DNA of 64,000 nucleotides from an uncultured Alphaproteobacteria bacterium (GTDB lineage: Bacteria > Pseudomonadota > Alphaproteobacteria > HIMB59 > GCA-002718135): NCBI GenBank assembly GCA_902620285.1, contig CACNHT010000004.1, positions 2,651 to 66,650 of the forward strand, read 5' to 3'. The notes under the pieces were generated by a model that was not told where the DNA came from, did no database searches, and saw only the letters and a program-made list of their open reading frames with translations. The translations under genes were made by a program, and so were the position numbers. Numbering within the stretch: position 1 is the stretch's first letter; the number at the start of each line of letters is the position of its first letter. This document shows, piece by piece, positions 2,084 through 28,255 of the stretch.

Positions 2084-2872
2084 TTAATAAGCGCTAGTAT
2101 TATCAGATTTAGTATCTACATCTTTCAATTCTTTTAATAAACTTTCAGCATGTGATGTCATCATTCTAAAATCAGAAAGTAAGGTGGTAAATTGAAAACC
2201 GTACTCCATCATTTCTTTCATATACTTAACTGATCCATTATGAATACCTGCAATCTTTCCTTTTTCTTTAGCTTTTTTTGCAATCATTTTTATATTTGAA
2301 AATACGGGATCTTCACGAACATCAAATTTAGGTGGTAAACCATAAGAAGAACTCATATCCGCAGGTCCAATATAGATACCAGTTAAGTTTGGAACTGAAA
2401 GAATGGCATCTAAATTTTCTACTGCTTGTTTTGTTTCTATCATTGCCAAACTTACAATATTATCATTTGCATGTTGATAGTAATCTGAACCATAAACTAC
2501 CTGAGCCCTCATTGGACCAAAACTTCTTTGACCTATTGGAGGATAATAACAATATGAAACAAACTTTTCACAGTCTTCTTTTGTATTTATCATTGGCGCA
2601 ATAATTCCTTGAATACCTAAATCTAACATTTTCATAATAATACCTGGCTCGTTCCATGGTACTCTTGTCATAGGAACAGTATCACTATTTGTTAATCCTT
2701 GAACCATTGAAATAGCAGTAGAATAATCATTTTGGCCATGCTGCATATCGATAGTTACTGAATCCCAACCCATTTTACCAAAGGCTTCTGCTGTAAAAGA
2801 ATTAGGTATAGAAAGCCACGCATTTATAGATGCTTTATTTTTTTTCCAAATATCAAATAATTTGTTTTTCAT
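2084..2872 (-). CDS. HpcH/HpaI-family aldolase (2-keto-3-deoxy-acid aldolase type)
   Basis: 262 aa. N-terminal pattern INAWLSIPNSFTAEAFGKMGWDSVTIDMQHG and ...GIQGIIAPMINTKED...RSFGP..., typical of class II HpcH/HpaI aldolases. Convergent with the ABC-F gene, 7 nt apart. Confidence 0.8.
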   Translation of the reverse strand: MKNKLFDIWKKNKASINAWLSIPNSFTAEAFGKMGWDSVTIDMQHGQNDYSTAISMVQGLTNSDTVPMTRVPWNEPGIIMKMLDLGIQGIIAPMINTKEDCEKFVSYCYYPPIGQRSFGPMRAQVVYGSDYYQHANDNIVSLAMIETKQAVENLDAILSVPNLTGIYIGPADMSSSYGLPPKFDVREDPVFSNIKMIAKKAKEKGKIAGIHNGSVKYMKEMMEYGFQFTTLLSDFRMMTSHAESLLKELKDVDTKSDNTSAY

Positions 2873-3169: not shown

Positions 3170-4507
3170 ATGGAGGAAATGATGAATAAAATTTTAAATA
3201 TTTTTTTAACTTTTATTCTTACAGCTTTTTTCGCAACATCAACATTTGCTGCCACTAAAGTAGTTTGGTGGATGGAAAGTAGTGCAGATACTGACCCTAC
3301 AGTTCAAGAAATGATGTGTGATGCTTTTAATGCTGAACAAGATGAAGTAGAATTAGAATGTGTATTTAAAGAAGACATTAATGATACTATCAGACCAGCT
3401 CTTTTATCTGGAAGTGGACCGGACATGTTTGATACACCTGGTGCTTCATATATAAAAATTTACCAAGATGCAGGTCTTGTTAAATCTATGCAAGAGTATG
3501 CTGATCAATATGGTTGGCAAGACAAACTTCTAGGTTGGGCTTACAACTCAGGAGTATTTGATGGTGAATTATATTCAATTCCAAAAAACTATGAAACAAT
3601 GATTTATTTTTATAATAAAACTTTGTTTGAAGAAAATGGATGGAGTACGCCAAATAATTTAGAAGAAGTTGAATCTTTAGCTGCTAAAATAAAAGCTAAG
3701 GGAATGAATGTTTATGCGTATGGTTCTGCTGGATGGCAGCCAACTCACGAACATTTAGTAGGTAACTATTTCAACACTTATGCTGGACCAGATAATGTCT
3801 ATAAAGCATTAATTGGTGAAAAAAAGTGGACTGATCCAGAGTTTGTAGAAGCAATTGAACTTTTAAGAAAACACATGGTAGATGAAGGTTATTGGTCTGG
3901 GGATTTAGAGACATATTATTCTTTAGATTGGGATGATTTTAATAACGAGTTTGCTACTAGAGGTTCTGCGATGCTCATGATTGGAACTTGGGGTTTCAAT
4001 GTAACGGCAACAAATTTTGGAGAAACTTCTGATGATTGGGATTGGAATCCTTTACCGATTCTGAATTCACAGGCAGGAAGTGCTCCTAATTACCAACTTG
4101 CAACAGGTGGAACTATGTCCATTAATGCAGCATCTAAAAATGCTGATGGAGCTGCAAAAGTAATTGATTGGATTCTTTCTGATAAAGAAAGAGCTCTTAA
4201 AGTTACTGGCAGTTTAGGTTATGGCGCTTGGTTGTTACCACTAAAATACACTGATGCTGACTTTGATCCTAATATTGATCCAAGACAAAAAAGATTCTTA
4301 ACTGAATTCGCAGAAGCTTCTGATTCTGGAAACTATGGATATACAACATGGACGTTCTATCCGAATGACCCAGGTGTACATATTTGGAAAGATATGGAAG
4401 TTGTTTGGGCTGGAGATATTACTCCACTTGAATTCATGGAGGAATCTCAAAGACTTTGGGATCAAGCTCGTGCAGACGATGCATTAGTTCCAGTTGGAAA
4501 AAGATAA
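3170..4507 (+). CDS. ABC transporter periplasmic solute-binding protein, family 1 (CUT1 sugar/oligosaccharide type)
   Basis: 445 aa. Sec signal peptide (NKILNIFLTFILTAFFATSTFA/AT) and SBP family-1 length and pattern. GGAGG at 3172-3176 suggests the true start may be ATG 3182 rather than 3170. Followed by two MalF/MalG-type permeases. Confidence 0.85.
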   Translation: MEEMMNKILNIFLTFILTAFFATSTFAATKVVWWMESSADTDPTVQEMMCDAFNAEQDEVELECVFKEDINDTIRPALLSGSGPDMFDTPGASYIKIYQDAGLVKSMQEYADQYGWQDKLLGWAYNSGVFDGELYSIPKNYETMIYFYNKTLFEENGWSTPNNLEEVESLAAKIKAKGMNVYAYGSAGWQPTHEHLVGNYFNTYAGPDNVYKALIGEKKWTDPEFVEAIELLRKHMVDEGYWSGDLETYYSLDWDDFNNEFATRGSAMLMIGTWGFNVTATNFGETSDDWDWNPLPILNSQAGSAPNYQLATGGTMSINAASKNADGAAKVIDWILSDKERALKVTGSLGYGAWLLPLKYTDADFDPNIDPRQKRFLTEFAEASDSGNYGYTTWTFYPNDPGVHIWKDMEVVWAGDITPLEFMEESQRLWDQARADDALVPVGKR

Positions 4508-4519
4508 TTTATAAATTTA

Positions 4520-4546
4520 AATAAGGGGAAATTTTTTCCCCTTATT
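4520..4546 (+). promoter_or_regulatory. Intercistronic stem-loop after the binding-protein gene (12-bp stem, 3-nt loop)
   Basis: AATAAGGGGAAA (4520-4531) pairs with TTTCCCCTTATT (4535-4546). No downstream U-tract on the + strand, so it looks more like an mRNA-stabilising or decay-barrier hairpin than a full terminator. Confidence 0.5.
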
Positions 4547-4561
4547 AAAAATAAAGTAATT

Positions 4562-5440
4562 ATGCCAAAATTTTTAACAAGTATAAATGCAATTTCCTGG
4601 TACTTTTTATTTCCAGTTATATTTATACATTTTTTTGTGGTAGCATTCCCATCGATACTAAGTTTATTGTTATGTTTAACGGACTGGAATGGTTTCGGCA
4701 GAATAAACTACGTTGGATTAGAAAACTTTCAAGAATTATTTAGAGACCGTGTTTTCAAGAAAGCAGTTAAACACAACATAATTTGGACAGTAATGTTCTT
4801 AACAATACCAGTAATCGTAGCACTTATTATAGCATATCTTTTAACTGGAATAAAAAGAGGACAACTTTTTTATAGGCTAGTGTATTTTTTTCCATACATT
4901 CTAGCCAGTATCGTTAACTGTTTGATTTGGAGATACATATTCCATCCAAGACATGGCTTAGGGGGTTGGTTTGAGAATCAAGGTATTGATTTTCTTGCTA
5001 AGTCACCTTTTGCAATGAAGGAGACTGCTTTATACGCTGTTGCCTGGGTAGATATGTGGCATTTTTGGGGCTTCTTAGTTATTATTTATTTAACTGGAAT
5101 GTATCAAGTGGATGACTCTCTTTATGAGGCAGCAGATATTGAAGGAGCAACAAAATTTCAAAAATTTAGATACATTACTTTACCAATGATACGACCAATT
5201 TTTGTTTTATCTTTAATAATTATAATCATCTGGTCTGTCCCAACTTTTGACTATGTATATATTTTAACAATGGGTGGGCCAGCATATAGTTCTGAAGTTG
5301 TAGCAAATCATCTGTATTCTCAAGCCTTTCAACGAATGAATGTTGGTTACGCGTCTACTATAGGTGTCATGATGTTCTTCTATGTCGGTATTATAGTTGG
5401 TTTCTTTGCAATTTTGAGGCGGATGGGTTGGGAGGTATAA
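4562..5440 (+). CDS. ABC transporter permease (MalF/UgpA-like, CUT1 family)
   Basis: 292 aa, about 6 TM segments, with the EAA-type loop EAADIEGATKFQKFRYITLPMIRP. Confidence 0.9.
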   Translation: MPKFLTSINAISWYFLFPVIFIHFFVVAFPSILSLLLCLTDWNGFGRINYVGLENFQELFRDRVFKKAVKHNIIWTVMFLTIPVIVALIIAYLLTGIKRGQLFYRLVYFFPYILASIVNCLIWRYIFHPRHGLGGWFENQGIDFLAKSPFAMKETALYAVAWVDMWHFWGFLVIIYLTGMYQVDDSLYEAADIEGATKFQKFRYITLPMIRPIFVLSLIIIIIWSVPTFDYVYILTMGGPAYSSEVVANHLYSQAFQRMNVGYASTIGVMMFFYVGIIVGFFAILRRMGWEV

Positions 5441-5448
5441 AATTTTAA

Positions 5449-6291
5449 ATGGCAACTGCAAGATTTAGACAAAGATCAAGCTATATTAATCACGCCATTT
5501 TGATTTTTATGGCTTTAACAATTATTTTGCCATTACTAGTTTTAGCTTTTAATTCTATAAAACCATCTTCTGAATTTGGAGCAAATCCATTAGGTTTTCC
5601 AAATGAAATAAGATTAATGAATTATTATGATGCTTGGGTGAATGGAAATTATACTCAAATATTTATGAATTCACTTACTTTGGTTATCGGAACATTGATA
5701 TTAAATTTGACTGTTTCAGGTTTAGCTGCATTCAGTTTGGCAGTTTTAAATCCAAGAGGAATTCAAACAATTGTTGTTGGCTTATACCTTTTAGTTGGAA
5801 TAAGTATTCCTGCTCAATTATTTATTTTACCATTATTTTTAATGTGGAAAAGTTTATACCTCCTAGATACAAGGATTGGTTTAGTTATTATTTATAGCGC
5901 CTTAAATGCCCCTTTTGCAACTTTCTTAATTCGCTCTTACATGTTGCAATTACCTACAGAACTTTTTGAAGCCGCTAAACTAGATGGGGCATCTGTAATG
6001 CAATTGTTTACAAGAGTTGCCCTACCTTTATCTTGGCCAGTTTTTTTAACAACAGCACTTATTGTGTCATTAACAGTTTGGAATGAGTTTTTATTTGCTA
6101 TTACTTTTATTATTACTGATGAGTACAAACCTATTTCGTCAATTTTATTTACATTTCAAAGTAGATTTGCAAATGATTATGGATTGGTGAGTGCGGCGTC
6201 TATTTTAATGGCGGCACCAATTGCTATTTTATTTATGTTTTTTCAAAGACGATTCATTGCTGGTTTAACCAGTGGTGCTACAAAAGGTTAG
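5449..6291 (+). CDS. ABC transporter permease (MalG/UgpE-like, CUT1 family)
   Basis: 280 aa, about 6 TM segments, with the EAA-type loop EAAKLDGASVMQLFTRVALPLSWP. Confidence 0.9.
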   Translation: MATARFRQRSSYINHAILIFMALTIILPLLVLAFNSIKPSSEFGANPLGFPNEIRLMNYYDAWVNGNYTQIFMNSLTLVIGTLILNLTVSGLAAFSLAVLNPRGIQTIVVGLYLLVGISIPAQLFILPLFLMWKSLYLLDTRIGLVIIYSALNAPFATFLIRSYMLQLPTELFEAAKLDGASVMQLFTRVALPLSWPVFLTTALIVSLTVWNEFLFAITFIITDEYKPISSILFTFQSRFANDYGLVSAASILMAAPIAILFMFFQRRFIAGLTSGATKG

Positions 6292-6306
6292 TTCAATGGG
6301 AGGAAG

Positions 6307-8472
6307 ATGGAACTTAACAAAGAATATGAGGAGAAAGTTTATTCAGGAGTTTTAGGTAAAATCATAGGCGTCTATCTTGGCAGACCTTTTGAGGGTTGGT
6401 GGTATGATAGAATTATAAAAGAATTAGGCCCAATTAATTATTATGTAAATGATAAATTAAATATGCCTGTTCAAATCACAGATGATGATTTGACTGGAAC
6501 TTTTAGATTCATAAATGCTCTAAAAGATTTTAATTTTGATAAGAATATTTCTTCTAAACAAATTGGACAAACTTGGTTAAATTATTGTTTGGAAAACCAA
6601 GCTGTTTTATGGTGGGGTGGTAAAGGAACATCATCAGAAGATACCGCTTATCAAAATCTTAAACAAGGTATTCACGCGCCAGATAGTGGTTCTATAAAAA
6701 CAAATGGTCGAATTGTTGCAGAGCAAATAGGTGCTCAAATTTTTATTGATGGATGGGGATTAGTTTCGCCAGGTGATCCAGATCAAGCAGCTGATTTTGC
6801 AAAAAAAGCTGGAAGTGTAAGTCATGATGGTGAATCTGTTTATGCTGCTCAAGTTGTTGCTGCAATGGAAGCAATGGCGTTTATAGAAAAAGATACAAAA
6901 AAAATTATTGAGCATTGCAAAAGATATATCCCAAAAGATTCAACAATTTTTAAACTTATATCTGATATTCAAGATTGGAGTTCTGGTAATTTAGACTGGG
7001 AACAAGCAAGAGAAAAAATAGATGATATTTATGGTTATGAAAAATTTATTGGCGGTGTTCATATTGTACCAAATCATGCATTAATTATTTTAGCATTACT
7101 ATTTGGAGATGATAACTTTCAAAAATCTTTAATGATTGTAAATACTTCAGGTTGGGACACAGATTGTAATTCGGGAAATGTCGGATGTTTTCTTGGAATT
7201 AAAAATGGATTAGAGAGTATTAAAGACGGACCCGACTATATTACACCAGTTAATGATACAATTTTTCTTCCAACAAGTAATGGTGCTGAAACGATGACTG
7301 ACGCATTAAGAGAAAGTCAAAATATTGTTAATATTGCTAGACGAATTAATGGTATGGAAAACAAGATAGTAAAAGAAAATGCAAGATATAATTTTGAAAT
7401 GCCAGGCTCTACTCAAGCTTGGAAAATTAATAAGACTAATGATAATAATTTAAATACTACAATTACTAATGTTCCTTATGAAACCAAGATTGGTGAAAGA
7501 GCATTAGAAATTGACTTTTCTAATTTATCAATAGGGCATTCAAGTGTTGCCTATGTTGATACATTTTTTCCAGATTGGTTTACTGAACTAAAAGGATCTC
7601 AGCGGCAGAAATTTTTTCACTATGACTTTGTTGGATGTCCAATTGTCTATAGTGGACAAAAGATTAAAACTGAAATTATTTCAAAAAGTAAAAATAATAT
7701 TAAAGTTACTTTATTTATAAAATATTGGGGTGAAGAAGATAAATTAAAACAAATAGATGCTGAAGAATATGAGCTTTCAAATAATGAAGTAAAATCAATT
7801 GAATGGATAGTTCCAGATACACATGCAAATCCAATTGGACAAATTGGATTTGTCATATCAGCAGATGTTAACACTTCAGGAAAATTACTAATTAATTTTC
7901 TTGATATTACGGGCACACCAAAAGTTACATTTAAAAGACCTGAACACATAGAAAATGCATCAAAAAATGGATATTTTTTTAACCAAGAATTTTATGGTCA
8001 ATTATGGAAAAGAGCATGGGTGAATGATATCGATAAATGGCAATATAGGTGGTTAGAGTCATTTAAAATTATCAATGGAGTTGGTAGAGGTCATATTTTA
8101 CAAGGATCATCTTCCTGGAAAGATTACACCGTTACTTCAAAAGTGAACTTTCCATTAGCATCAGCTGGAGGATTAATAATTAGATCTCAAGGAGTAAAGC
8201 GATATTACTCTTTAGAACTTACTTCCAATAATAAACTGCAGATTAATAAAATGTTTTATGAATTAGAAACATTAAAAGAAATCGATTTTAACTTTGAGTT
8301 TTATAAGGAATATGAATTAAAATTTGAAGTGAATGGAAATAAATTATTGGGTTATGTTGATGATAAGTTATTAATTGAAACACACGATAAAGATAATTCT
8401 TTTGAAACAGGCATGATAGGTTTTGTTACACAAGATGGAACATTGTCATCCAATTCAATAAGTATAGAGTAA
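6307..8472 (+). CDS. ARH-domain fusion protein, paralogue 1: ADP-ribosylglycohydrolase-fold domain + two beta-sandwich (CBM/lectin-like) modules
   Basis: 721 aa with a GGAGG-type RBS just upstream. Residues ~10-340 carry the ARH (Pfam PF03747-type) landmarks: GVYLGRPFEGW (cf. GDALGxPxE), ITDDDLTGT (TDD metal motif), SVSHDGESVYAAQVVAAM, VPNHALIILALLFG and NTSGWDTDCNSGNVGC (cf. GGDTDT). Residues ~355-540 (NFEMPGSTQAW...) and ~560-721 (GRGHILQGSSSWKDYTVTSKV..GGLIIRSQG..YYSLEL..GMIGF) look like beta-sandwich/ConA-LamG-DUF1080-like modules. No signal peptide or TM segment. Confidence 0.75.
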   Translation: MELNKEYEEKVYSGVLGKIIGVYLGRPFEGWWYDRIIKELGPINYYVNDKLNMPVQITDDDLTGTFRFINALKDFNFDKNISSKQIGQTWLNYCLENQAVLWWGGKGTSSEDTAYQNLKQGIHAPDSGSIKTNGRIVAEQIGAQIFIDGWGLVSPGDPDQAADFAKKAGSVSHDGESVYAAQVVAAMEAMAFIEKDTKKIIEHCKRYIPKDSTIFKLISDIQDWSSGNLDWEQAREKIDDIYGYEKFIGGVHIVPNHALIILALLFGDDNFQKSLMIVNTSGWDTDCNSGNVGCFLGIKNGLESIKDGPDYITPVNDTIFLPTSNGAETMTDALRESQNIVNIARRINGMENKIVKENARYNFEMPGSTQAWKINKTNDNNLNTTITNVPYETKIGERALEIDFSNLSIGHSSVAYVDTFFPDWFTELKGSQRQKFFHYDFVGCPIVYSGQKIKTEIISKSKNNIKVTLFIKYWGEEDKLKQIDAEEYELSNNEVKSIEWIVPDTHANPIGQIGFVISADVNTSGKLLINFLDITGTPKVTFKRPEHIENASKNGYFFNQEFYGQLWKRAWVNDIDKWQYRWLESFKIINGVGRGHILQGSSSWKDYTVTSKVNFPLASAGGLIIRSQGVKRYYSLELTSNNKLQINKMFYELETLKEIDFNFEFYKEYELKFEVNGNKLLGYVDDKLLIETHDKDNSFETGMIGFVTQDGTLSSNSISIE

Positions 8473-8484
8473 AAATATAAGAGT

Positions 8485-10689
8485 ATGAAATTAGATAATA
8501 ATTTTGAAAAGAAAGTTTATGCTGGTGTCTTAGGAAAAATTATTGGAGTTTATTTAGGAAGACCATTTGAGGGTTGGCCCTATGATAAAATAATGAAAGA
8601 ACTTGGGCCTATTTATTATTACGTAAACGACAAATTAAATTTACCTCTTCATGTTACGGATGATGATCTCAATGGTACTTTTACTTTTATTAAAGCTTTT
8701 AAAGACTTTAATTTTAATCGAAATATAACTTCAAAGCAAATTGGTGATACGTGGTTAAATTATTGTTTAGAAAATCAGGCTGTTTTAGCATGGGCTGGAA
8801 AGGGATTATTGACCGAAGAGAGTGCGTATTTAAATTTAAAAGAAGGTATTGAAGCTCCAGAGAGTGGATCAATTAAAAGGAATGGTAAAATTATTGCAGA
8901 GCAAATTGGTGCACAAATATTTATTGATGGTTGGGGAATGATTGCAGCAGGTGATCCAGACTTTGCATCTGATTTAGCAAAAAGAGCAGGGAGTGTTAGT
9001 CATGATGGTGAGTCTGTTTACGGCGCTCAAATGGTTGCTTCTATGGAAGCAATGGCTTTTATTGAAAGTGATACAAAAAAAATAATTGAGCATTGTAAAA
9101 GTTACATTCCTAAGAATTCTGTGATTTATAAATTAATTTCAGATATTCAAGATTGGAGTTCTGGTAATTTAGATTGGGAACAAGCTAGATTCAAAATTGA
9201 AGAACACTATGGGTATGACAAATACCAAGGATTTTGTCATATTGTGCCAAATCATGCTTTGATAATTCTAGCTCTTTTATTTGGAGATGATGATTTTCAA
9301 AAAACGTTAATGATTGTTAATACAGCAGGGTGGGATACAGATTGTAACTCAGGAAATGTTGGCTGTTATATGGGTATTAAAAATGGTCTAGAGGGCATTC
9401 AAAAAGGTGCAGATTTTATTACACCTGTTAATGACACTTTATATATTACATCTGCTCGTGGTTCAGAAACTATGACTGATGCATTAACTGAAAGCCAGAA
9501 TATAATTAATATTAGAAGAAAATTAGATGGCCTTGAACATCAATCTATTAAAAACAATGCTCGATATAATTTTGAAATGGAAACATCTACGCAAGGATGG
9601 ATGATTGATAAATCAAATAATAATAATCAAAATACTTTTTTAAAAAACTGTGAACATATCTCTGCTATTGGCAAAAGAGCTTTAGAGATAAATTTTAACA
9701 ATCTTACAAAAGGAATTAATAGTGAATTATATGTGAATACATTTTTCCCAGAAGAATTTACAAGATTGAATGAGCAACAAGAAATGATGCTGATGGTTTA
9801 CAGTTTTGTTGGTTGTCCTACAGTTTACTCAGGTCAAACAATTAAAGCAGAAATTATATCGAAGACGAAAAAAAATATAAAAATTAAATTATTTATTAAG
9901 TATTATGGTGAAGGAGATAAGTTATTTAAATTAGATTCGGAGGAATTTTACTTCTCAGAAAATGAAACAAAAAAAATAGAATGGACTATTCCAGATACAT
10001 TATCAAATCCCATTACTCAACTTGGATATAGTATTGCATCTGATGAACAAGTATCAGGTAAAATATTAATAAATTATATTGATATTTCTGGAATACCTAA
10101 GATGACTTTTAAAAAACCTGAGCATATTAAAAACGACAAAGTAAATACGACAAGTCATAATATTAAATCTTTAACAAATGGTGTTTATATTCCAGATGAT
10201 GAAAAATATTATGGTCAGTTATGGAAATTGGCTTGGGTGAATGATGTAGATAAATGGTATAGTTATGGAAAAAATTCATTTGGGTTAATCAAAAATACAT
10301 CAAGAGGGCATGTATTTACAGGATCCTCCGATTGGAAAAATTATTCGGTAACTTCAAAAATAATGTTTCGTTTAGCATCATCTGGAGGATTGGTAATTCG
10401 ATCTCAGGGTTTGCAGAGGTATTATTCATTAGAAATTAAATCAACAAATAAATTACAGATTAATAAAATGGAATATGGTCTAAAAATATTAAAAGAAGTA
10501 GATTTTGCTTTTGAGCCATTTGAGGAATACTTTATGCGTTTTGAGGCTGATAATAATTTTTTAAAAGGCTTTATTAACAATGAATTGTTAATTGAGGTAG
10601 AAGATAAATCAAATCAATTTGAAAAAGGTATGATAGGCTGTATTGTTGAAAATGGAACTATTATTAGTGATGAAATTTCGATAAATTGA
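8485..10689 (+). CDS. ARH-domain fusion protein, paralogue 2
   Basis: 734 aa, colinear with paralogue 1 without indels through residue ~290. Same ARH motifs (GRPFEGW, VTDDDLNGT, GWDTDCNSGNVGC). Carries a longer linker (EHIKNDKVNTTSHNIKSLTNGVYIPDDEKYYGQLW) before the C-terminal module. Confidence 0.75.
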   Translation: MKLDNNFEKKVYAGVLGKIIGVYLGRPFEGWPYDKIMKELGPIYYYVNDKLNLPLHVTDDDLNGTFTFIKAFKDFNFNRNITSKQIGDTWLNYCLENQAVLAWAGKGLLTEESAYLNLKEGIEAPESGSIKRNGKIIAEQIGAQIFIDGWGMIAAGDPDFASDLAKRAGSVSHDGESVYGAQMVASMEAMAFIESDTKKIIEHCKSYIPKNSVIYKLISDIQDWSSGNLDWEQARFKIEEHYGYDKYQGFCHIVPNHALIILALLFGDDDFQKTLMIVNTAGWDTDCNSGNVGCYMGIKNGLEGIQKGADFITPVNDTLYITSARGSETMTDALTESQNIINIRRKLDGLEHQSIKNNARYNFEMETSTQGWMIDKSNNNNQNTFLKNCEHISAIGKRALEINFNNLTKGINSELYVNTFFPEEFTRLNEQQEMMLMVYSFVGCPTVYSGQTIKAEIISKTKKNIKIKLFIKYYGEGDKLFKLDSEEFYFSENETKKIEWTIPDTLSNPITQLGYSIASDEQVSGKILINYIDISGIPKMTFKKPEHIKNDKVNTTSHNIKSLTNGVYIPDDEKYYGQLWKLAWVNDVDKWYSYGKNSFGLIKNTSRGHVFTGSSDWKNYSVTSKIMFRLASSGGLVIRSQGLQRYYSLEIKSTNKLQINKMEYGLKILKEVDFAFEPFEEYFMRFEADNNFLKGFINNELLIEVEDKSNQFEKGMIGCIVENGTIISDEISIN

Positions 10690-10715
10690 GATAATATTCA
10701 TTTGGAGGGAGGAAA

Positions 10716-12878
10716 ATGAATTTAGATAAAGTATTTGAAGAAAAAGTTTATGCTGGTGTCTTAGGAAAAATTATTGGTGTTTATTTAGGTAGACCATTTG
10801 AAGGTTGGTATTATGACAGGATCATGGAAGAACTTGGTCCAATTAATTATTATGTAAATGATAAACTTGATTTTCCAATACATGTCACAGATGATGATCT
10901 AACAGGTACTTTTAGGTTTATAAATGCTCTTAAACATTTTAATTTTGATAAAAATATTTCGCCTAAACAAATTGGACAAACCTGGTTAAATTATTGTTTA
11001 GAAAATCAAACTGTACTTGCGTGGGCAGGAAAAGGAATTTTAACTGAAGAAAGCGCATACATGAATCTTAAACAAGGTATTCACGCACCTGAAAGTGGTT
11101 CCATTGCTAAAAATGGTAAAGTAATTGCGGAACAAATCGGAGCGCAAATATTTATTGATGGCTGGGGAATGGTTTCTCCAGGTGATCCAGAACAAGCTGT
11201 TGATTTAGCAAAAAGAGCAGGGAGTGTTAGTCATGACGGTGAATCTGTTTACGGCGCTCAAGTTGTTGCTGCTATGGAAGCCTATGCATTCATAGAAAAA
11301 GATTTAAAAAAAATAATAGAGGACAGTAAAAAATTTGTTCCAAATGATTCAACAATTTATAAATTAATTTCTGATATCCAAGATTGGAGCTCTGGTAATT
11401 TAGATTGGGAACAAGCTAGATCCAAGATTGAAGATAAGTATGGGTATAGTAAATTTCCAGGTAATTGTCATATCGTTCCTAATCACGCACTAATTATTTT
11501 ATCGTTGTTATTCGGAGATGATGATTTTCAAAAATCCTTAATGATCGTCAATACAGCAGGATGGGATACGGATTGTAACTCAGGAAATGTTGGTTGTATC
11601 TTAGGAATAAAAAATGGATTAGAAGGAATTAAACAGGGTCCAGACTATATAACTCCTGTAAATGATATCATTTATTTACCAACAGCATATGGTTCTGAAA
11701 CAATGACTGATGCTTTATTGGAAAGTCAGAACATTATTAATATAACAAGAAAAATGAATGGTCTTGAAAGCAAGGTTATCAAAAATAATGCTAGATATAA
11801 TTTTGAAATGGAAACATCTACACAAGGATGGATGGTTGATAAATCAAATGATAACAATCTAAATACTAGCTTATCTAATGTTGATTATAAATCAGATAAT
11901 GGAACTAGATCGTTACAAGTCAGTTTTAATGATCTATCATTTGGTCTTGCAAGTGAAATTTTTGTAGATAGTTTTTTCCCAGAATGGTTTACAAAATTAG
12001 AAGGTTATCAAGTTCAAAGATATTTTCATTATGATTATGTCGCTTGTCCTATTGTATATTCTGGACAAAAGATCAAAACAGAAATTATATCTCAATCTGA
12101 AAAAGATTTGCGAATTAATTTATTTATTAAATATTGGGGAGAAGAAGATAAATTAATCAAATTATCTTCTGATGATTTTAATTTAAGGAGTAAAGAAAAT
12201 AATACAATTGAATGGGTTGTTCCTGATACTTTTGCAAATCCAATAGGACAGATAGGTATTAGTATTAATTCTGATGATAATGTTTCAGGAAAAATTTTAA
12301 TTAATTATTTAAATATCTCTGGAACTCCAAAAATGACTTTTAGAAGACCTGACCACATAGATGAATATAAAAGAGGCATATTTTATAAAGAGGAGGTTTA
12401 CGGTCAATTATGGAAAAGAGCTTGGGTCAATGATGTAGATAAATGGCAATACCGACATAATGAATCATTTAAAGTAGTAAGGGGCATAGGTCGTGGTCAC
12501 ATAATGACTGGGAGTGAGACATGGAAAGATTATACAATTTCTTCAAAGATATCTATTCCTCTCGCATCTGCCGCTGGATTAATTGTTAGGTCTCAAGGTT
12601 TAAAAAGATATTATTCTCTTGAGTTAACATCTGAAAATAAACTCAAGATTAATAAAATGGAATATGAATTAAAAACACTTAATGAAATAGATTTTAATTT
12701 AGAATATTTTAAAGAATATGATTTAAAATTTAAAGTAGATGGCAATAAACTTCAAGGTTATGTTGATAATCAATTACTAATTGAAGCAGAAGATTCATCT
12801 AATCCATTTGAGGAAGGTATGATGGGATTTTTAACTGAAAATGGAGCAATTCAAAGTAATTCAATATCTATAGAATAA
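10716..12878 (+). CDS. ARH-domain fusion protein, paralogue 3
   Basis: 720 aa with a strong RBS (GGAGGGAGG). Same motifs. The N-terminal half shares long identical nucleotide tracts with paralogue 2. The C-terminal half is closest to paralogue 1 at the protein level. Confidence 0.75.
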   Translation: MNLDKVFEEKVYAGVLGKIIGVYLGRPFEGWYYDRIMEELGPINYYVNDKLDFPIHVTDDDLTGTFRFINALKHFNFDKNISPKQIGQTWLNYCLENQTVLAWAGKGILTEESAYMNLKQGIHAPESGSIAKNGKVIAEQIGAQIFIDGWGMVSPGDPEQAVDLAKRAGSVSHDGESVYGAQVVAAMEAYAFIEKDLKKIIEDSKKFVPNDSTIYKLISDIQDWSSGNLDWEQARSKIEDKYGYSKFPGNCHIVPNHALIILSLLFGDDDFQKSLMIVNTAGWDTDCNSGNVGCILGIKNGLEGIKQGPDYITPVNDIIYLPTAYGSETMTDALLESQNIINITRKMNGLESKVIKNNARYNFEMETSTQGWMVDKSNDNNLNTSLSNVDYKSDNGTRSLQVSFNDLSFGLASEIFVDSFFPEWFTKLEGYQVQRYFHYDYVACPIVYSGQKIKTEIISQSEKDLRINLFIKYWGEEDKLIKLSSDDFNLRSKENNTIEWVVPDTFANPIGQIGISINSDDNVSGKILINYLNISGTPKMTFRRPDHIDEYKRGIFYKEEVYGQLWKRAWVNDVDKWQYRHNESFKVVRGIGRGHIMTGSETWKDYTISSKISIPLASAAGLIVRSQGLKRYYSLELTSENKLKINKMEYELKTLNEIDFNLEYFKEYDLKFKVDGNKLQGYVDNQLLIEAEDSSNPFEEGMMGFLTENGAIQSNSISIE

Positions 12879-12902
12879 ATTTGTAAAAAAAGGGGAGAAA
12901 TA

Positions 12903-15062
12903 ATGAAACTAGATAAAGTGTATGAAGAAAAAGTATATGCAGGGGTACTTGGCAAGTTAATTGGTGTTTATCTAGGACGTCCTTTTGAACAATGGACTCA
13001 TGAAAGAATATTAGAAGAGTTAGGTGAGATTAATTACTATGTAAATGAGAAATTAAATGTTCCATTAGTAGTAACTGATGATGATATTACTGGTACCTTT
13101 ACTTTTTTAAGAGCTTTAAGAGAAAATAATTATGATCCTAATATTACGCCAAAACAAATTGGTCAAAGTTGGTTAAATAATCTTATAGAAAATAAAACTG
13201 TTTTGTGGTGGGGAGGTAGAGGTCATTCAGCTGAGGACACTGCATTCCAAAACCTTAAGGCAGGCATTCACGCCCCAATGAGTGGTTCGATTGAAACCAA
13301 TGGAGAAGTTGTTGCACAACAAATAGGAGCTCAAATATTTATTGATGGATGGGCTTTAGTATCACCAGGAGATCCAGAAAAAGCTGCTGATCTTGCAAAA
13401 AAAGCTGCAAGCGTAAGTCATGATGGCGAAGCGATTTACGGAGCACAAATGGTAGCCGCTATGGAGTCTTTAGCTTTTATCGAAAAAGATATTAATAAAA
13501 TTATTAATGAAAGTAAGAAATATATTCCAAATACATCTGAGATTTACAAAGTAATTGGAGAATTACAAAATATACGATCAGGTAATAGTGACTGGATGCA
13601 AGCAAGAGAATTTTTAGCTGAAAACTATGATTATGATAAATATTTAGGTGAGTGTCACATGATACCTAATCATGCTATTATAATTTTATCATTATTATTT
13701 GGGGATGATGATCTTCAAAAAACATTAATGATTGTTAATACTGCAGGTCGAGATACAGATTGTAACTCAGGAAATGTTGGTTGCCTGATGGGAATTAAAA
13801 ATGGACTTGAGGGATTAAATAATGGCCCAGATTATCTTTCTCCAATCCAAGATAGAATGTATTGCCCTACGGCAAATGGTGGCGAAACACAGACAGACGC
13901 ATTAACTGAAGCTTATAAAGTAATTAATACTGCAAAAAGAATGAACAATGAGGATATTGTTCAGCCTAAAAATGGATCCAGATTTCATTTTGAAATGCCT
14001 GGTTCAGTTCAAGGGTGGAGAGCAAACTATAAAGAAAATAAGAATATTTCCACTCATGTACAAAATATTGAATATGATAGTAAAATTGGAAAAAGAGCCC
14101 TTGAGATTAAATTTGATAGAGTAGCGCCTGGTGTCTTCTCTGAAGCATTGGTAGATGTATTTTTTCCTCAAGAGTTACACGAATTAGCAGGAAAAGCTAG
14201 AGAGAGATTTTTTCAAAGTTATAATTTTATTTCATCTCCATTATTATATTCTGGTCAAACAATTGAATCTGAAATTAATTTTGTCACAAGTTCAGATAAA
14301 CCAATCAATGTTAAATGTTTCATAAATATGTTTGGGAAAGATGATGAATATGAAAGAATTAATTCAGAGGAAATAATTTTGTATCCAGGTAAATCACATA
14401 ACTTAAAATGGAAAATTCCTTCAACTGAGGGAAATCCAATTACTCAAGTTGGATTTTCTATTGAATCTGAAGAAGCAAATTCTGGCAGCTTATTAATAAA
14501 CTATCTAACATTTACGGGAGAACCAGATTGTTCATTTTATAAACCAAAACATATTGGAGAACATAAACGGGGTGTGAAAACATCAAACGCTGTTATGTGG
14601 AAATCAAGTTGGGTAAATGCTGTTGATAAATGGGAAGTAGGTGCAAGAACATTTAGAATAACAAAAGATAGTGGGAGAGGGATTATCATTACGGGTAATG
14701 AAGCTTGGAAAAACTATACTGTTAGCGCAGATATAGCAGTGCAAAGACTAACTACCGGTGGCCTTGCTGTAAGAGTACAAGGTTTAAATAGATACTATGG
14801 ACTGGTAATTAATTCTTCAAACAAACTTCAATTAATAAAAGTGGTAAATGAAGTAAAAGTTTTAAAAGAAATGGATTTTAATTTAGAATATTTTAAAAAT
14901 TATAAATTATCTCTTAAAATTAAAGATAATGTTCTTTCTGCATACTTAGAAAATAAATTAGTTTTAGAATATGAAGATAAGAATAATCTTCTTGATTCAG
15001 GAGCTATGGGATTGATTGTTGAGGATGGTACATTAGTCACTGATGAAATAGTTGTAGGATAA
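12903..15062 (+). CDS. ARH-domain fusion protein, paralogue 4 (most divergent copy)
   Basis: 719 aa with RBS AAGGGGAG. Motifs retained (GRPFEQW, VTDDDITGT, GRDTDCNSGNVGC). The middle and C-terminal modules are clearly homologous to copies 1-3 but much more diverged. Confidence 0.75.
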   Translation: MKLDKVYEEKVYAGVLGKLIGVYLGRPFEQWTHERILEELGEINYYVNEKLNVPLVVTDDDITGTFTFLRALRENNYDPNITPKQIGQSWLNNLIENKTVLWWGGRGHSAEDTAFQNLKAGIHAPMSGSIETNGEVVAQQIGAQIFIDGWALVSPGDPEKAADLAKKAASVSHDGEAIYGAQMVAAMESLAFIEKDINKIINESKKYIPNTSEIYKVIGELQNIRSGNSDWMQAREFLAENYDYDKYLGECHMIPNHAIIILSLLFGDDDLQKTLMIVNTAGRDTDCNSGNVGCLMGIKNGLEGLNNGPDYLSPIQDRMYCPTANGGETQTDALTEAYKVINTAKRMNNEDIVQPKNGSRFHFEMPGSVQGWRANYKENKNISTHVQNIEYDSKIGKRALEIKFDRVAPGVFSEALVDVFFPQELHELAGKARERFFQSYNFISSPLLYSGQTIESEINFVTSSDKPINVKCFINMFGKDDEYERINSEEIILYPGKSHNLKWKIPSTEGNPITQVGFSIESEEANSGSLLINYLTFTGEPDCSFYKPKHIGEHKRGVKTSNAVMWKSSWVNAVDKWEVGARTFRITKDSGRGIIITGNEAWKNYTVSADIAVQRLTTGGLAVRVQGLNRYYGLVINSSNKLQLIKVVNEVKVLKEMDFNLEYFKNYKLSLKIKDNVLSAYLENKLVLEYEDKNNLLDSGAMGLIVEDGTLVTDEIVVG

Positions 15063-15064
15063 AT

Positions 15065-16048
15065 ATGAAATATAGAAAATTTGGATCATTAGATTGGAAC
15101 GTATCCGAAATTGGATTAGGTTGCTGGCAAATTGGAGCAGATTGGGGAGAAGTTCGTGAAGATAAAGCTAAAGAAGTATTAAAATCATCATTTGATAATG
15201 GTGTTAATTTTTTTGATACTGCTGATGTCTATGGCATGGGTAGAAGTGAAAAATTTGTAGGTGAATTCATTAAATCAGTATCTGAAAGAATTTATGTGGC
15301 AACAAAAGCTGGAAGACAAATCAACCCTCATGTGGCCGAGGGATACTATAATAAGGAGTTAATGGAGTCTTATGTAGACCAATCTTTATCAAATCTTAAT
15401 GTTGAAACAATTGATCTCTTACAAATGCATTGTCCTCCAACCGAAGTATATTCATCTGATCATACATTTGATATGTTAGATCATTTAGTGAGTAAAGGAA
15501 AAATTCAACATTACGGATTTAGTGTTCAAACAGTTGATGAAGCTTTAGCTTGCATCAAACGTCCAAATACAAAATCGATACAAGTTATTTTTAATATTTT
15601 TAGACAAAAACCTGCTGAAAAATTATTTGAAATAGCAAAAGAAAAAAAAGTTGCAATTATAGTAAGGGTGCCTCTTGCAAGTGGTTTGTTAACAGGTAAG
15701 TTCTCAAAAGATTCTTCTTTTGCTCCTGATGATCATAGAAATTATAATATCAATGGTGATGCATTTGATGTTGGAGAAACATTTTCAGGTGTTAACTTTA
15801 ATAAAGCATTAGATGCAGTTGAAGATTTAAAAAATATTTTGCCAACTGATATAACTTTGTCACAATTATCGCTAAGATGGATTTTGATGCATGATGCAGT
15901 TAGTGTTGTTATTCCTGGCGCTAAAAATAAAGATCATGTGAATCTAAATACTTCTTCTTCAAATATTAATGAAATTTCTTCTTTGATGGATAAAATCAGT
16001 AATATTTACACAGAGTACTTTTTTGATGATGTGCATCATCGTTGGTAA
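15065..16048 (+). CDS. Aldo/keto reductase family oxidoreductase
   Basis: 327 aa. GLGCWQIG..., NFFDTADVYGMGRSEKFVGEF and LQMHCP motifs typical of the AKR (Tas/YhdN-like) family. The start is 2 nt after the stop of ARH paralogue 4. Confidence 0.85.
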   Translation: MKYRKFGSLDWNVSEIGLGCWQIGADWGEVREDKAKEVLKSSFDNGVNFFDTADVYGMGRSEKFVGEFIKSVSERIYVATKAGRQINPHVAEGYYNKELMESYVDQSLSNLNVETIDLLQMHCPPTEVYSSDHTFDMLDHLVSKGKIQHYGFSVQTVDEALACIKRPNTKSIQVIFNIFRQKPAEKLFEIAKEKKVAIIVRVPLASGLLTGKFSKDSSFAPDDHRNYNINGDAFDVGETFSGVNFNKALDAVEDLKNILPTDITLSQLSLRWILMHDAVSVVIPGAKNKDHVNLNTSSSNINEISSLMDKISNIYTEYFFDDVHHRW

Positions 16049-17202
16049 AAAATTTTGTGTTAGAAGAAAATATAATTTTTAGAAGAGCTACGCTTGCATC
16101 AGTAATTACTTCTACCTACCCAATGATAGTCGTGGGTTGTTATTTTGGAATAACACCTTGGAATATGGAAAGACTTTCAATTGACGAGTCTGATTTAAGC
16201 TATGCAATATTACTTTTTGGTATTTTTTTTATAATTTCTAATCAAATTGCTGGAAGGATATTAGTCCCAAAATATGGAACTAAATTAGTTATGACTTTAG
16301 CTTTTCCTATTGTTACATTTTCCGCCTTATTGACTGTTATTTCCTCATCATATTTTTATTTTTTATTAACTTTTATATCTGGCGGAATAGGATGGGGTGC
16401 TTCTGGACCAATTGGAGGTATACATAGTCAACTTATTGAAAGACATTTTAAAAAAATTATTACACCATATTATGCCATGGGATTTAATTTAGGAATTCTC
16501 CTTGGAGGGGGATTAGCGGGTTTAATAATGAGAAATAATTATGAACCTTACATATCGTTTACGATTTTATCCTTTTTATCAATCTTAGTTTCCTCTTTTG
16601 TATATTCTTATGGATTACCTCGAGATTTAGATTTTAAAGGCGAAGGTGAGAAATTTAAATTACCAGAGACGAATGTTCTTTTATTTGGATTTTTGTTATT
16701 TTTTGTTTTTGGATCAGGTGGAATAATTATGGATTGGTCGACATTATGGTTGTCAAAAGATTTAAATACTCCTCTATACTTAGCAAGTATGGGATTAATC
16801 TTTTTTAGCATTGGAGGGATTTTTGCAAATTTATTTTCAAATTCTTTGATTAATTTATTCACTGAAAAAGTTGTAGGTTGTCACTTTGTGATGATTGGCG
16901 CAGCTATAATGTTTTTGTCTTTATTAACAAATAACTTCTACATTATACTAGGTGTTCTATGTATTTATGGATTTGCTATTGCAAATTTAGTTCCTATAAT
17001 AATTCGACAAGCGGTTAAACAATCCAATGAAAGTATCCCAATGACTGTAACTAATCTTATAACAATTGGATTGTCTTCTACAATGATTTTACCTGCTGGA
17101 ATTGGTTTTCTAGCTGAAACATATTCATTAACATTAAATATGTATTTATTAACCTTTGTAGTATTTATTTGTGCGGTTATATTTTCGCTTAAATATAAAT
17201 AA
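16042..17202 (+). CDS. Multi-pass membrane transporter, MFS-like
   Basis: 386 aa, about 11-12 hydrophobic segments with a central charged loop (PRDLDFKGEGEKFKLPE). TTG start overlaps the AKR stop, and the exact start is uncertain. The family call is pattern-level only. Confidence 0.55.
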   Translation: MVKNFVLEENIIFRRATLASVITSTYPMIVVGCYFGITPWNMERLSIDESDLSYAILLFGIFFIISNQIAGRILVPKYGTKLVMTLAFPIVTFSALLTVISSSYFYFLLTFISGGIGWGASGPIGGIHSQLIERHFKKIITPYYAMGFNLGILLGGGLAGLIMRNNYEPYISFTILSFLSILVSSFVYSYGLPRDLDFKGEGEKFKLPETNVLLFGFLLFFVFGSGGIIMDWSTLWLSKDLNTPLYLASMGLIFFSIGGIFANLFSNSLINLFTEKVVGCHFVMIGAAIMFLSLLTNNFYIILGVLCIYGFAIANLVPIIIRQAVKQSNESIPMTVTNLITIGLSSTMILPAGIGFLAETYSLTLNMYLLTFVVFICAVIFSLKYK

Positions 17203-18008
17203 TGGCTAAACTTAAAATATCTCAAATTCAATTTAGTGCTAGTCACATAGCAAATTTAAATGCAAAAAATTTAGAACAAAATTTTAAAAAAACATTAAAA
17301 TTTAAACCTGATTTAATTTGCACACCAGAATGCTCAAACATTATTACTAATGATAAAAATTTTTTATTATTAAATGCTCCATATCAAAATACATGCCCAG
17401 TTTTAAAAATGGCAAAAAATTTTGCTAAAAAAAATAAGGTTAATATAAATCTTGGTTCTTTACTCTTAAAAGTAAAAAAACAACGCAAACTAGTTAACAG
17501 ATCTTTTTTTATTGATAATCATGGAGTGATAAAAAAAACATATGATAAAATTCATATGTTTGATGTCGAAATTAATAATAATGAAAAACATCAAGAATCA
17601 TATTTATTTAAAGCAGGAAATAAAATAATTTTTACAAAAATTAATAATATTAAATTAGGAATGACAATTTGTTATGATTTACGATTTCCTAATTTGTATA
17701 GGCAGCTTGCTAAAAAAGATTGTTCAATTATTTTAGTTCCTGCTGCTTTTACTAGACCAACCGGAAAAGATCATTGGGAGGTTTTGAATAGATCACGAGC
17801 TATAGAGAATAATGTTTTTATTGTAGCAACAGGTATGTGTGGAAATCATCATATGAAAAGAAAGACTTATGGATATTCTCTTGTAGCAGATCCATGGGGG
17901 AGCATTGTAAATAGTACTAAAAATAAGCCTGCAATTCTTAATTCAATAATTAATATTTCTGATGTTAAAAATATAAGAAAAAAAATTCCTTCTCTAAAAT
18001 ATGACTAA
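17202..18008 (+). CDS. Carbon-nitrogen hydrolase (nitrilase superfamily, omega-amidase-like)
   Basis: 268 aa. Glu-Lys-Cys triad context: CTPECS, YDKIHMFD, TICYDLRFP. The start overlaps the upstream stop (TAATG). Confidence 0.85.
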   Translation: MAKLKISQIQFSASHIANLNAKNLEQNFKKTLKFKPDLICTPECSNIITNDKNFLLLNAPYQNTCPVLKMAKNFAKKNKVNINLGSLLLKVKKQRKLVNRSFFIDNHGVIKKTYDKIHMFDVEINNNEKHQESYLFKAGNKIIFTKINNIKLGMTICYDLRFPNLYRQLAKKDCSIILVPAAFTRPTGKDHWEVLNRSRAIENNVFIVATGMCGNHHMKRKTYGYSLVADPWGSIVNSTKNKPAILNSIINISDVKNIRKKIPSLKYD

Positions 18009-26889: not shown

Positions 26890-27335
26890 TTTCTAAACTT
26901 TTTGTGACATACCCCACAATTTGCTGACATTACTTTAAAAGCATCATTTAACATTTCACTATCTTCTAATTCAGCACTAAGTGAAATCATTTCAATATCA
27001 CTAACAAACTTATCGTTTAATTCATTAAAAGTTTCTCTATCATTCCATATTTCTTCACTAGCTCCTTTGTGCTGACTTCCTTCAGGATAGTGATCTTTAA
27101 AATCCGATGCTGCGTGTAACAAAGTTTCGTTTAATTCAAGAATTGCTTCATAATCATTAGTTTTTAACAATCTAAATATTTGAGATGACGTACTTTTAAC
27201 TTTTTGCATTAAAGCCATTCTATTATTAACGATCTCTTCAAGAGATTTATCTTCTAAAGTTACTTTATGACTCATCAAAATAGTAGGTGTCATCAACAAT
27301 AGTACTATGAGTATAATTTTAAAGCGTGTAACCAT
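26886..27335 (-). CDS. Class II c-type cytochrome (cytochrome c'/c-556-like), periplasmic
   Basis: 149 aa. Signal peptide and a single C-terminal haem motif CGVCHKKFR, as in four-helix-bundle class II cytochromes c. Confidence 0.65.
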   Translation of the reverse strand: MVTRFKIILIVLLLMTPTILMSHKVTLEDKSLEEIVNNRMALMQKVKSTSSQIFRLLKTNDYEAILELNETLLHAASDFKDHYPEGSQHKGASEEIWNDRETFNELNDKFVSDIEMISLSAELEDSEMLNDAFKVMSANCGVCHKKFRN

Positions 27336-28212: not shown

Positions 28213-28255
28213 GAAGTTTTACATATTTCATGATAGATGAAAAATAAAGATAAAT

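Follow-up and report, generated by a model that had tools for sequence, protein, structure and literature searches.

The gene array and its operon

The DNA analysed here (hereafter the window) is a stretch of 64,000 nucleotides (nt) of contig CACNHT010000004.1 from an uncultured alphaproteobacterium, with a guanine-plus-cytosine (GC) content of about 30%. It contains four tandem genes for proteins of about 720 amino acids (aa), each consisting of an ADP-ribosyl hydrolase (ARH) domain and two additional beta-sandwich domains. The genes, designated ARH1 (6307..8472, 721 aa), ARH2 (8485..10689, 734 aa), ARH3 (10716..12878, 720 aa) and ARH4 (12903..15062, 719 aa), are all located on the plus strand and occupy 6307-15062 head-to-tail, with intact reading frames and spacers of 12, 26 and 24 nt. 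The list of open reading frames (ORFs) exactly reproduced the four tandem genes, lengths, spacers and intact frames claimed in an initial annotation of this DNA. That annotation had also given each copy its own ribosome-binding site, which was slightly overstated: clear Shine-Dalgarno sequences preceded ARH1 (GGGAGG), ARH3 (GGAGGGAGG) and ARH4 (GGGGAG), but ARH2 had a weak AAGAG alone.

The four copies shared 50-72% identity at the protein level and 62-74% at the DNA level. ARH4 was the most divergent one, showing 50-53% identity to the other copies, and ARH2 had an insertion of 13 aa separating its middle domain from the C-terminal one. The DNA self-comparison displayed the array as a repeat with periods of 2178, 2231 and 2187 nt, in which long identical stretches were absent. 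No other close paralogues were detected in the window by all-versus-all BLASTP of its ORFs. The earlier statement that all other genes are single-copy therefore held for close paralogues, but ancient family-level pairs of 22-35% identity do exist (51334-56152, 25475-26889, the ABC ATPase domains and the two permeases described below).

The array is directly preceded by genes for a CUT1-type carbohydrate ABC importer, a link which adds to the account of the initial annotation. The first gene of the operon (3170..4507, plus strand) encodes a 445-aa periplasmic substrate-binding protein (SBP) of PF01547 (SBP_bac_1, E 4.5e-25), the nearest solved relatives of which are oligosaccharide-binding proteins (4g68, 3vxb and NagB1; E ~1e-17). 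It is followed on the same strand by the genes of permease 1 (4562..5440, 292 aa; PF00528), with a best NCBIfam match of the GlcT/UgpA/MalF type, and permease 2 (5449..6291, 280 aa; PF00528, E 2.9e-17) of the GlcU/UgpE/MalG type. The permease 2 gene ends 15 nt before ARH1, and the gaps along the SBP-permease-permease-array segment were 8-55 nt, an organization corresponding to a CUT1-type uptake operon. A MalK/MsiK-type ATPase was found neither in the operon nor in the window, where an ABCF protein (262-2076) and a 229-aa protein (62086-62775) were the only ABC ATPases. CUT1 systems commonly rely on a shared ATPase with a gene at another site, and the ATPase of this transporter must be encoded elsewhere in the genome.

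Domain architecture and predicted fold

PF03747 was detected in all four copies at aa 14-307, with E-values of 1e-45 to 1e-50 and scores of 155-172 bits against a gathering cutoff of 26.2, covering profile positions 2-286/287. ARH4 was modelled with AlphaFold2 from an alignment of 57 sequences, and the model had a mean predicted local distance difference test score (pLDDT) of 91.7 and a predicted template modelling score (pTM) of 0.92, and therefore implied fixed inter-domain packing. The catalytic domain (aa 1-347; 12903..13943, plus strand) was assigned to the all-helical ARH fold on the basis of PF03747, Foldseek and sequence motifs. The middle domain (aa ~360-546; 13980..14540, plus strand) is a beta-sandwich resembling the carbohydrate-binding module (CBM) family CBM22, according to the secondary structure of the model and a CBM22 match. 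The C-terminal beta-sandwich (aa ~570-719; 14610..15059, plus strand) is CBM66-like and also resembles the lectin domain of glycoside hydrolase (GH) family GH59, as indicated by Foldseek, profile comparison and PF21708.

In the Foldseek comparison with the PDB, the N-terminal domain of ARH4 matched MJ1187 with a template modelling (TM) score of 0.73, DraG with 0.72-0.74, the Thermus thermophilus protein 2cwc with 0.69 and ARH3 (the known enzyme of that name) with ~0.6. The C-terminal ~155 aa superposed on the CBM66 of Bacillus subtilis SacC (4azz/4b1m) with TM scores of 0.79-0.83, root-mean-square deviations of 1.7-2.0 A and ~20% identity. This domain also matched the lectin domain of galactocerebrosidase (GH59, 3zr5), and a tandem CBM22 structure (4xup) matched both sandwiches together. 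The relationship was detectable in sequence as well, since the family profile matched the CBM66 of levanase with an E-value of 1.6e-4 and PF21708 reached its threshold in ARH4 (27.5 bits). The ARH-domain fusion proposed in the initial annotation was thus confirmed by PF03747 and the fold, and the extra ~400 aa corresponded to two CBM-like domains.

The motifs found in ARH4 were E29, T58-D59-D60-D61, H173-D174 and D284-T285-D286-C287-N288. In alignments of 34 and 57 sequences, D60 and N288 were invariant, while E29, D59, D61, H173, D174, D284, T285 and D286 were invariant or at least 90% conserved. All the candidate metal ligands were retained in ARH1 to ARH4. Judging from the alignment with MJ1187 and established knowledge of the fold, the acidic clusters are predicted to be equivalent to the ligands of the binuclear Mg/Mn center in the solved ARHs. 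Signal peptides were absent from all four proteins, the ARH domain starting at approximately residue 8, and a cytoplasmic location is therefore expected for the enzymes.

None of the four proteins matched ARH-type NCBIfam models at E<=0.1, including the equivalog models for DraG (TIGR02662) and Tri1 (NF041672). The PDB contained no full-length relative, and the best E-values of the ARH domain against PDB entries were 0.0066 and 0.0086. Database names were generic throughout, and our literature search found no paper characterizing the ARH + CBM22-like + CBM66-like architecture or discussing the SAR11 array. The earlier view that this is not a characterized family agreed with all of these results. 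The only SAR11 mention found was a 2007 table that lists SAR11_1227 'adp-ribosylglycohydrolase' among the genes never present in conserved gene order on Sargasso Sea fragments.

The array in other SAR11 genomes

Related loci were collected by a scan taking one genome per species, which returned 23 Pelagibacterales loci, and the window proteins were mapped onto them. The near-identical loci belonged to single-cell genomes titled Pelagibacteraceae or uncultured Alphaproteobacteria. Together with the GC content of ~30%, they support the assignment of the window to SAR11. The four-gene array was present with identical order and flanks in nine independent assemblies (L001-L004, L006-L009 and L021), and a tenth one, the metagenome contig L042, ended inside the third copy. 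In the four-copy genomes, the orthologues of ARH1 and ARH2 were 92-100% and 84-100% identical to those in the window, respectively. Twelve other genomes (L010-L015, L017-L020 and L023) had only two genes at this site, the first ARH3-like and the second ARH4-like, which were 86-87% and 82-83% identical to the window counterparts, respectively. The ARH3 type filled the first slot in most of the two-copy genomes, and the ARH4 type was found in all two- and four-copy genomes. In two of the two-copy genomes, L013 (7446-9605) and L014 (3238-5397), the first slot was occupied by a fifth type of paralogue, with 719 aa and 73% identity to ARH3, which branched apart from the ARH3 clade in the tree. One locus (L035) had a single copy at this site. 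The comparison of copy number across related genomes suggested by the initial annotation accordingly gave one, two or four copies at one and the same site.

The flanking genes were constant, consisting of the ABCF gene, an HpcH-type aldolase gene on the opposite strand, the SBP gene, the two permease genes, the array, and genes for an aldo/keto reductase (AKR), an MFS transporter, a CN-hydrolase and a methyltransferase. Among the approximately 100 loci examined, only those of Pelagibacterales had the full-length gene in close tandem copies.

The initial annotation had raised the question of whether the array is an assembly artefact, in which a repeat was expanded or mis-joined. Apart from the repetitive layout itself, nothing pointed in this direction. 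DNA identity between the copies is only 62-74%, without long identical stretches, and the array recurred in ten independent assemblies. The artefact was rejected on these two grounds, and the chance that it could still account for the locus is negligible.

In the neighbour-joining tree, all SAR11 copies formed one clade separate from the non-marine homologues. The ARH4 type branched first, and the single-copy gene was basal to the group of ARH1, ARH2 and ARH3. Orthologues of each copy type from the different genomes grouped together. The duplications are therefore older than the split between these genomes, and the copies have persisted from then on.

Two further observations were made on these loci. 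One of the two-copy loci, L018 (NYXO01000061.1, 6667 nt), is titled 'MAG: Methanobacteriota archaeon', but has the SAR11 segment of permease, ARH3-like, ARH4-like and AKR genes, the proteins of which are 82-94% identical to those of the window. This is almost certainly a contig of Pelagibacterales that was mis-binned. The SBP occurred in two allelic classes, with either 98-100% or 87-88% identity to the window protein, and the class was uncoupled from the identity of the array (window 3170-6291 compared with L001, L003, L011, L019 and L020). L001, for example, was 99-100% identical to the window in ARH1-4, yet 87% in the SBP and 93-94% in the permeases. This uncoupling suggests recombination breakpoints within the operon.

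Selection and divergence among the copies

Synonymous sites were saturated between all copies (dS 1.2-1.4). The ratio of nonsynonymous to synonymous substitution rates (dN/dS) was 0.17-0.34 over the whole length, with 0.10-0.20 for the catalytic domain and 0.18-0.55 for the two sandwiches, demonstrating that all four copies are under purifying selection. Identity between copies was 63-81% in the ARH domain and 36-67% in the other two domains, the middle sandwich being the most divergent part (36-59%). The catalytic domain is thus the most conserved, and the parts presumed to recognize the substrate are the most divergent.

Differences were also found at conserved positions of the family. In the alignment, 226 columns were at least 95% conserved in 39 non-marine homologues, and the window copies departed from the family at 33-48 of them. 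Position 108, which is N in the family, was H, T, L and I in the four copies, and position 325, D in the family, was N, N, R and Y. Position 250 and the loop 102-113 varied among the copies as well, and ARH4 had a W283R substitution beside the metal ligand D284. These differences at family-conserved positions indicate diverging specificity, not decay or dosage.

The initial annotation had suggested selection for functional diversity rather than dosage. That suggestion was strengthened by the saturated dS, the purifying selection, the maintenance of the orthologue groups and of the metal ligands, and the dissimilarity of the copies at highly conserved positions. The alternative is that the four copies are functionally alike, either as subunits of one hetero-oligomer or as dosage duplicates drifting on one substrate. 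All four have the same catalytic residues and domain order, lie in one operon with very short spacers and are served by a single SBP, and genomes with one or two copies evidently manage with fewer. Dosage duplicates are, however, normally near-identical and unstable, whereas the divergence here is old and large, purifying selection acts on each copy, the types persist across genomes as separate orthologue groups, and the differences affect positions that do not vary in the rest of the family. Variation in copy number also argues against an obligate complex of four subunits. We therefore regard functional equivalence as unlikely, and have high confidence that this is a real, selected and diverged array of paralogues.

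Distribution and gene context of the family

When 1.84 billion cluster representatives were searched exhaustively with HMMER, 3453 of them matched at E<=1e-3, and 519 reached E<=1e-30. Among the best 150 matches, most were ~700 aa and aligned end to end. Named members came from Spirochaetota, Actinomycetota, Chloroflexota and ascomycete fungi, and all were named generically as 'ADP-ribosylglycohydrolase family protein' or 'ADP-ribosylation/Crystallin J1'. The fungal members included a 721-aa protein of Hypoxylon fuscum (KAI1398158.1, P0158), which aligned end to end with 38% identity, and a 521-aa protein of Lasiodiplodia mahajangana (P0127), which matched the C-terminal domains with 27% identity. 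The search with the C-terminal 363 aa alone returned just 12 proteins and gave no view of other fusion partners of the sandwiches. These results demonstrated that the fusion of ARH and CBM-like domains is a large and old family already recorded in databases and not a SAR11 invention, contrary to any reading of it as rare or SAR11-specific. The family spans kingdoms, possibly as a result of horizontal transfer.

The neighbouring genes were clustered for 93 non-redundant loci, and frequencies within five genes of the fusion gene were counted in those 68 that had two or more neighbouring ORFs. Homologous ABC permeases were present in 31 of the 68 loci, an SBP and a LacI regulator in 17 each, an ABC ATPase in seven and an IolG-like oxidoreductase in five. 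A PfkB kinase with ribokinase as the best match was found in eight loci (~12%), with a ninth member of this cluster six genes away in L055. IUNH-type nucleoside hydrolase genes occurred in three (~4%). The usual gene order was LacI-SBP-permease-permease-fusion, and the window SBP belongs to the same homology cluster as the SBPs preceding the fusion gene in other phyla. In L025 (Thermomicrobiales), the order SBP-permease-permease-fusion was the same as in SAR11, and its permeases were 41-46% identical to those of the window (41% for permease 1 and 46% for permease 2).

The catabolic neighbours pointed toward ribose. With the marine kinase of L036 (described below) set aside, eight non-marine kinases were compared with the ribokinase equivalog model TIGR02152. 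Six of them scored above its cutoff (334-358 bits against 299.65), two were just below it (272 and 291), and five of the eight genes abut the fusion gene. By rough inference, a given single-copy gene would be present in a ten-gene interval by chance in well under 1% of loci, and ribokinase at ~12% is therefore a large enrichment. The IUNH genes directly adjoin the fusion gene in L040, L055 and L109, the assignment in L109 being made by homology clustering only. L055 combined these elements in the order rbsK / LacI-SBP-permease-permease-fusion-IUNH. Four LacI regulators linked to such cassettes all matched best to RbsR and then to CytR or PurR, and all were below the equivalog cutoffs; the likeness to RbsR is suggestive only. 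The contexts inspected individually mostly agreed with this picture, and those of L027, L033 and L041 were uninformative. Other carbohydrate-related contexts were UxaC, ROK and GH31 genes in L029, and GH20 and GH78 genes in L037.

A second marine arrangement was found in the single-cell genome GCA_902607895.1 (L036, 3043-12163). Its fusion protein, with 57% identity, was accompanied by an SBP, two permeases, a PfkB kinase, an Amidohydro_2 protein, a BtpA/SgcQ-family protein and a MalK-type ATPase. The kinase was weakly ribokinase-like (98 bits), and the locus is a second, more complete catabolic cassette. Four non-marine loci had the fusion gene beside a second ARH-family gene encoding 393-586 aa, namely L032 (8749-9930), L056 (7743-9101), L059 (6237-7988) and L062 (10115-11875). 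The second protein was 26-31% identical to the fusion in L056, L059 and L062, and that of L032 was a 393-aa PF03747 protein. Such pairs may represent a two-enzyme ARH pathway.

This context bears on whether the fusion proteins are genuine ADP-ribosyl hydrolases of the DraG/ARH1/ARH3 kind, acting on proteins, nucleic acids or O-acetyl-ADP-ribose with the extra domains recruiting targets. Strong PF03747 membership, intact metal-ligand motifs, a fold resembling those of DraG and ARH3 and the database names are all compatible with such a function. On the other hand, the proteins matched neither the DraG nor the Tri1 equivalog model, and their ARH domain is very distant in sequence from all solved ARHs. 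The appended domains have CBM folds, and the neighbours are LacI regulators, CUT1 importers, ribokinase and nucleoside hydrolase, not ADP-ribosyltransferases, nitrogenase or sirtuins. The context argues for glycoside catabolism over protein de-ADP-ribosylation, and an ADP-ribosyl hydrolase function is considered quite unlikely.

A role in defence was also weighed, in which diverged Tri1-like proteins would neutralize different ADP-ribosylating toxins of competitors or phages. ARH-fold proteins such as Tri1 act as immunity proteins, tandem diverged paralogues are typical of immunity-gene clusters, and the copy number here differs between strains. PADLOC gave no matches, however, and the Tri1 model none either. 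No toxin, secretion-system or mobile-element gene is adjacent to the array, whose flanks are conserved housekeeping and metabolic genes. Tri1 is ~360 aa, against 720 aa with CBM-like domains in the present proteins, and the homologues elsewhere are single-copy genes within sugar-uptake operons. A defence or immunity array was rejected because of the absence of PADLOC matches and toxin neighbours, and we consider such a poly-immunity locus very improbable.

Proposed function of the fusion proteins

The intact metal site, the apparent cytoplasmic location, the CBM-type domains, the association with importer operons across phyla and the ribokinase and nucleoside hydrolase neighbours led us to propose that these proteins are hydrolases of imported ribosyl or other furanosyl glycosides. 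They would be cytoplasmic, divalent-metal-dependent glycosidases, specialized from each other in the four SAR11 copies. This full proposal has about an even chance of being correct in our estimation. The more general part, a catabolic hydrolase coupled to the transporter, is likely. The assignment of ribose as the sugar for the whole family falls somewhat short of an even chance, and is less probable again for SAR11, where the ribose link is weakest.

According to the proposal, the CUT1-type importer encoded upstream would take up a small glycoside, which would be cleaved by the ARH-fold catalytic domain rigidly joined to the CBM22-like and CBM66-like sandwiches. Known ARH enzymes (DraG, ARH1 and ARH3) hydrolyse O- or N-glycosidic bonds at C1'' of ribose by means of a binuclear Mg/Mn center. 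By analogy to this chemistry and from the gene neighbourhoods in other phyla, the cleaved bond is most likely a ribofuranosyl (or other furanosyl) bond, and the products would be free ribose and an aglycone or a second sugar. In SAR11, an ancestral single gene would have been duplicated long ago, and the copies would have kept the metal site while diverging in the sandwiches and in catalytic-domain loops that are invariant in other members. One transporter may thereby feed two to four hydrolases of different specificity.

Several points weigh against this proposal. The substrate is drawn from gene context only, and about half of the loci had no informative neighbours. Neither ribokinase, nucleoside hydrolase nor LacI genes were found in the SAR11 operon or the 64-kb window, and the SAR11 array is followed by AKR and MFS transporter genes rather than ribokinase-type genes. 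The substitutions of the SAR11 clade at 33-48 of the 226 conserved columns may mean a substrate different from that of the terrestrial relatives. The neighbours in L029 (UxaC and GH31) and L037 (GH20 and GH78) point to other sugars, the LacI matches stayed under the equivalog cutoffs, and CBM66 is known as a binder of fructan, not of ribose.

Some of these points support the alternative that the enzymes act on a non-ribose sugar, such as fructofuranosides or another cis-diol sugar, and that the association with ribokinase does not apply to SAR11. The C-terminal domain is indeed closest to the fructan-binding CBM66, the SAR11 loci are without ribokinase and have altered many family-invariant residues, and UxaC/GH31 or GH20/GH78 genes adjoin some of the loci elsewhere. 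Nevertheless, neither a fructokinase nor a GH32 neighbour recurred, ribokinase was the only recurring catabolic enzyme, and all known ARH chemistry takes place at C1'' of ribose. We accordingly judge a non-ribose substrate improbable, and retain the hydrolysis of ribosyl or related furanosyl glycosides as the preferred interpretation.

Other features of the locus

The co-directional run extends beyond the array, and thirteen genes in 3170-18624 are separated by gaps of at most 55 nt or overlap at start and stop codons; they include those for the SBP, the permeases, the ARH fusions, AKR, MFS transporter, CN-hydrolase and methyltransferase. ABC ATPase genes were absent from this run. Promoter and terminator scans gave counts equal to those of shuffled sequence and were uninformative on the operon boundaries. 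The AKR gene (15065..16048, plus strand; 327 aa, PF00248, E 3.6e-62), with nearest relatives of the IolS/YdjG type, starts 2 nt past the stop codon of ARH4. It is the downstream neighbour in all SAR11 loci and not in other phyla. The AKR gene is probably co-transcribed with the array; a functional link is unproven. The MFS transporter gene (16042..17202, plus strand; 386 aa, PF07690) overlaps the AKR stop codon and is likewise a SAR11-specific neighbour, the link of which to the array is uncertain. The CN-hydrolase had deaminated-glutathione amidase as its best match, below the cutoff. Upstream, an HpcH/HpaI-family aldolase gene of the 2-keto-3-deoxy-acid aldolase type (2084..2872, minus strand; PF03328) is divergent from the SBP gene and is a conserved SAR11 neighbour. 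It scored below the cutoffs of the HpaI, GarL and rhamnonate aldolase models, and any connection with the array is speculative.

The 55-nt gap between the SBP and permease 1 genes contains a GC-rich palindrome at 4526-4541 (GGGGAAAAAATTTCCC, in the minus-strand reading). It could be a partial terminator or an mRNA-stabilizing hairpin by which the SBP is expressed independently of the genes that follow. Approximately 12 kb downstream of the array, genes for a xylose-isomerase-like TIM-barrel protein (27319-28212) and an FGGY-family sugar kinase (29061-30542) were found on the minus strand (27319-30542).

Significance and comparison with known systems

SAR11 genomes are a textbook case of streamlining and have very few paralogues. 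The conserved two- to four-fold expansion of a 2.2-kb gene in them is therefore the sign of a function that is strongly selected in surface waters of the ocean. Only part of the carbon substrates used by SAR11 is known so far, and the array with its sugar-type importer offers an experimental route to a missing substrate class. If the proposed function is correct, the dissolved organic compounds concerned would be important enough to justify 8.7 kb in the streamlined genome of a very abundant ocean bacterium. If the proteins are riboside or glycoside hydrolases, the label 'ADP-ribosylglycohydrolase' would be misleading for a family that comprises hundreds of bacterial and fungal clusters at 50% identity. 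The ARH fold would then include a branch for carbohydrate catabolism, and this branch could count as a new family of glycoside hydrolases. Among ARH-fold enzymes, this family has a new architecture, a lineage-specific expansion in SAR11 and probably a new class of substrate without a nucleotide. It is a more doubtful and tentative idea that a new glycoside-hydrolase family on the ARH fold cleaves ribofuranosyl or related furanosyl glycosides without a nucleotide, with SAR11 using up to four specialized enzymes behind one high-affinity transporter. The biochemical claim is entirely inferential.

The proteins share with DraG, ARH1, ARH3, Tri1 and MJ1187 the all-helical fold (TM scores of 0.6-0.74) and PF03747, and their TDDD and DTDxN motifs align with the GGDTDS motif of MJ1187. 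DraG, ARH1-3 and Tri1 are, in contrast, single-domain proteins of ~290-360 aa, whereas the fusions have 719-734 aa with two added beta-sandwiches. Their ARH domain is just 13-16% identical to the solved ARHs, and has Cys after the second Asp motif instead of the Thr/Ser of the known ARHs. Unlike the DraG type, the fusion genes lie in sugar-import operons and not with ADP-ribosyltransferases or nitrogenase. The proteins are consequently members of the ARH superfamily, but not of the DraG, Tri1 or ARH1-3 functional families.

The CBM66 of the exo-levanase SacC (4azz, 4b1l and 4b1m) has a superposable fold and a detectable sequence relationship to the C-terminal domain. Modules of CBM66 bind the terminal fructosyl residues of fructans such as levan and are appended to secreted fructan-active enzymes. 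This domain is attached here to a cytoplasmic ARH-fold enzyme, unlike the CBM66 and lectin domains of a secreted GH32 or lysosomal GH59 enzyme.

As a proposed functional analogue, the IUNH nucleoside hydrolases (RihA, RihB, RihC and UriH) acting with ribokinase also provide cytoplasmic, metal-dependent release of ribose. They differ in having an unrelated fold and in cleaving the beta-N-ribosidic bonds of nucleosides, and the co-occurrence of IUNH and fusion genes suggests complementary rather than redundant activities.

The closest thematic parallel was found in yegTUV of Escherichia coli, in which an ARH-family protein is co-transcribed with a transporter and a PfkB kinase under a sugar-type repressor. 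This system consists of YegT, similar to nucleoside:H+ symporters, the ARH-family protein YegU and the PfkB sugar kinase YegV, with GgaR/YegW as the repressor, and its function is uncharacterized (PMC10819704). YegU is a single-domain protein of 334 aa with 25% identity to the fusion over ~100 aa, and was rejected as a close relative owing to this low identity and its own uncharacterized state. The transporter of yegTUV is of the MFS type, not an ABC importer as in the SAR11 operon.

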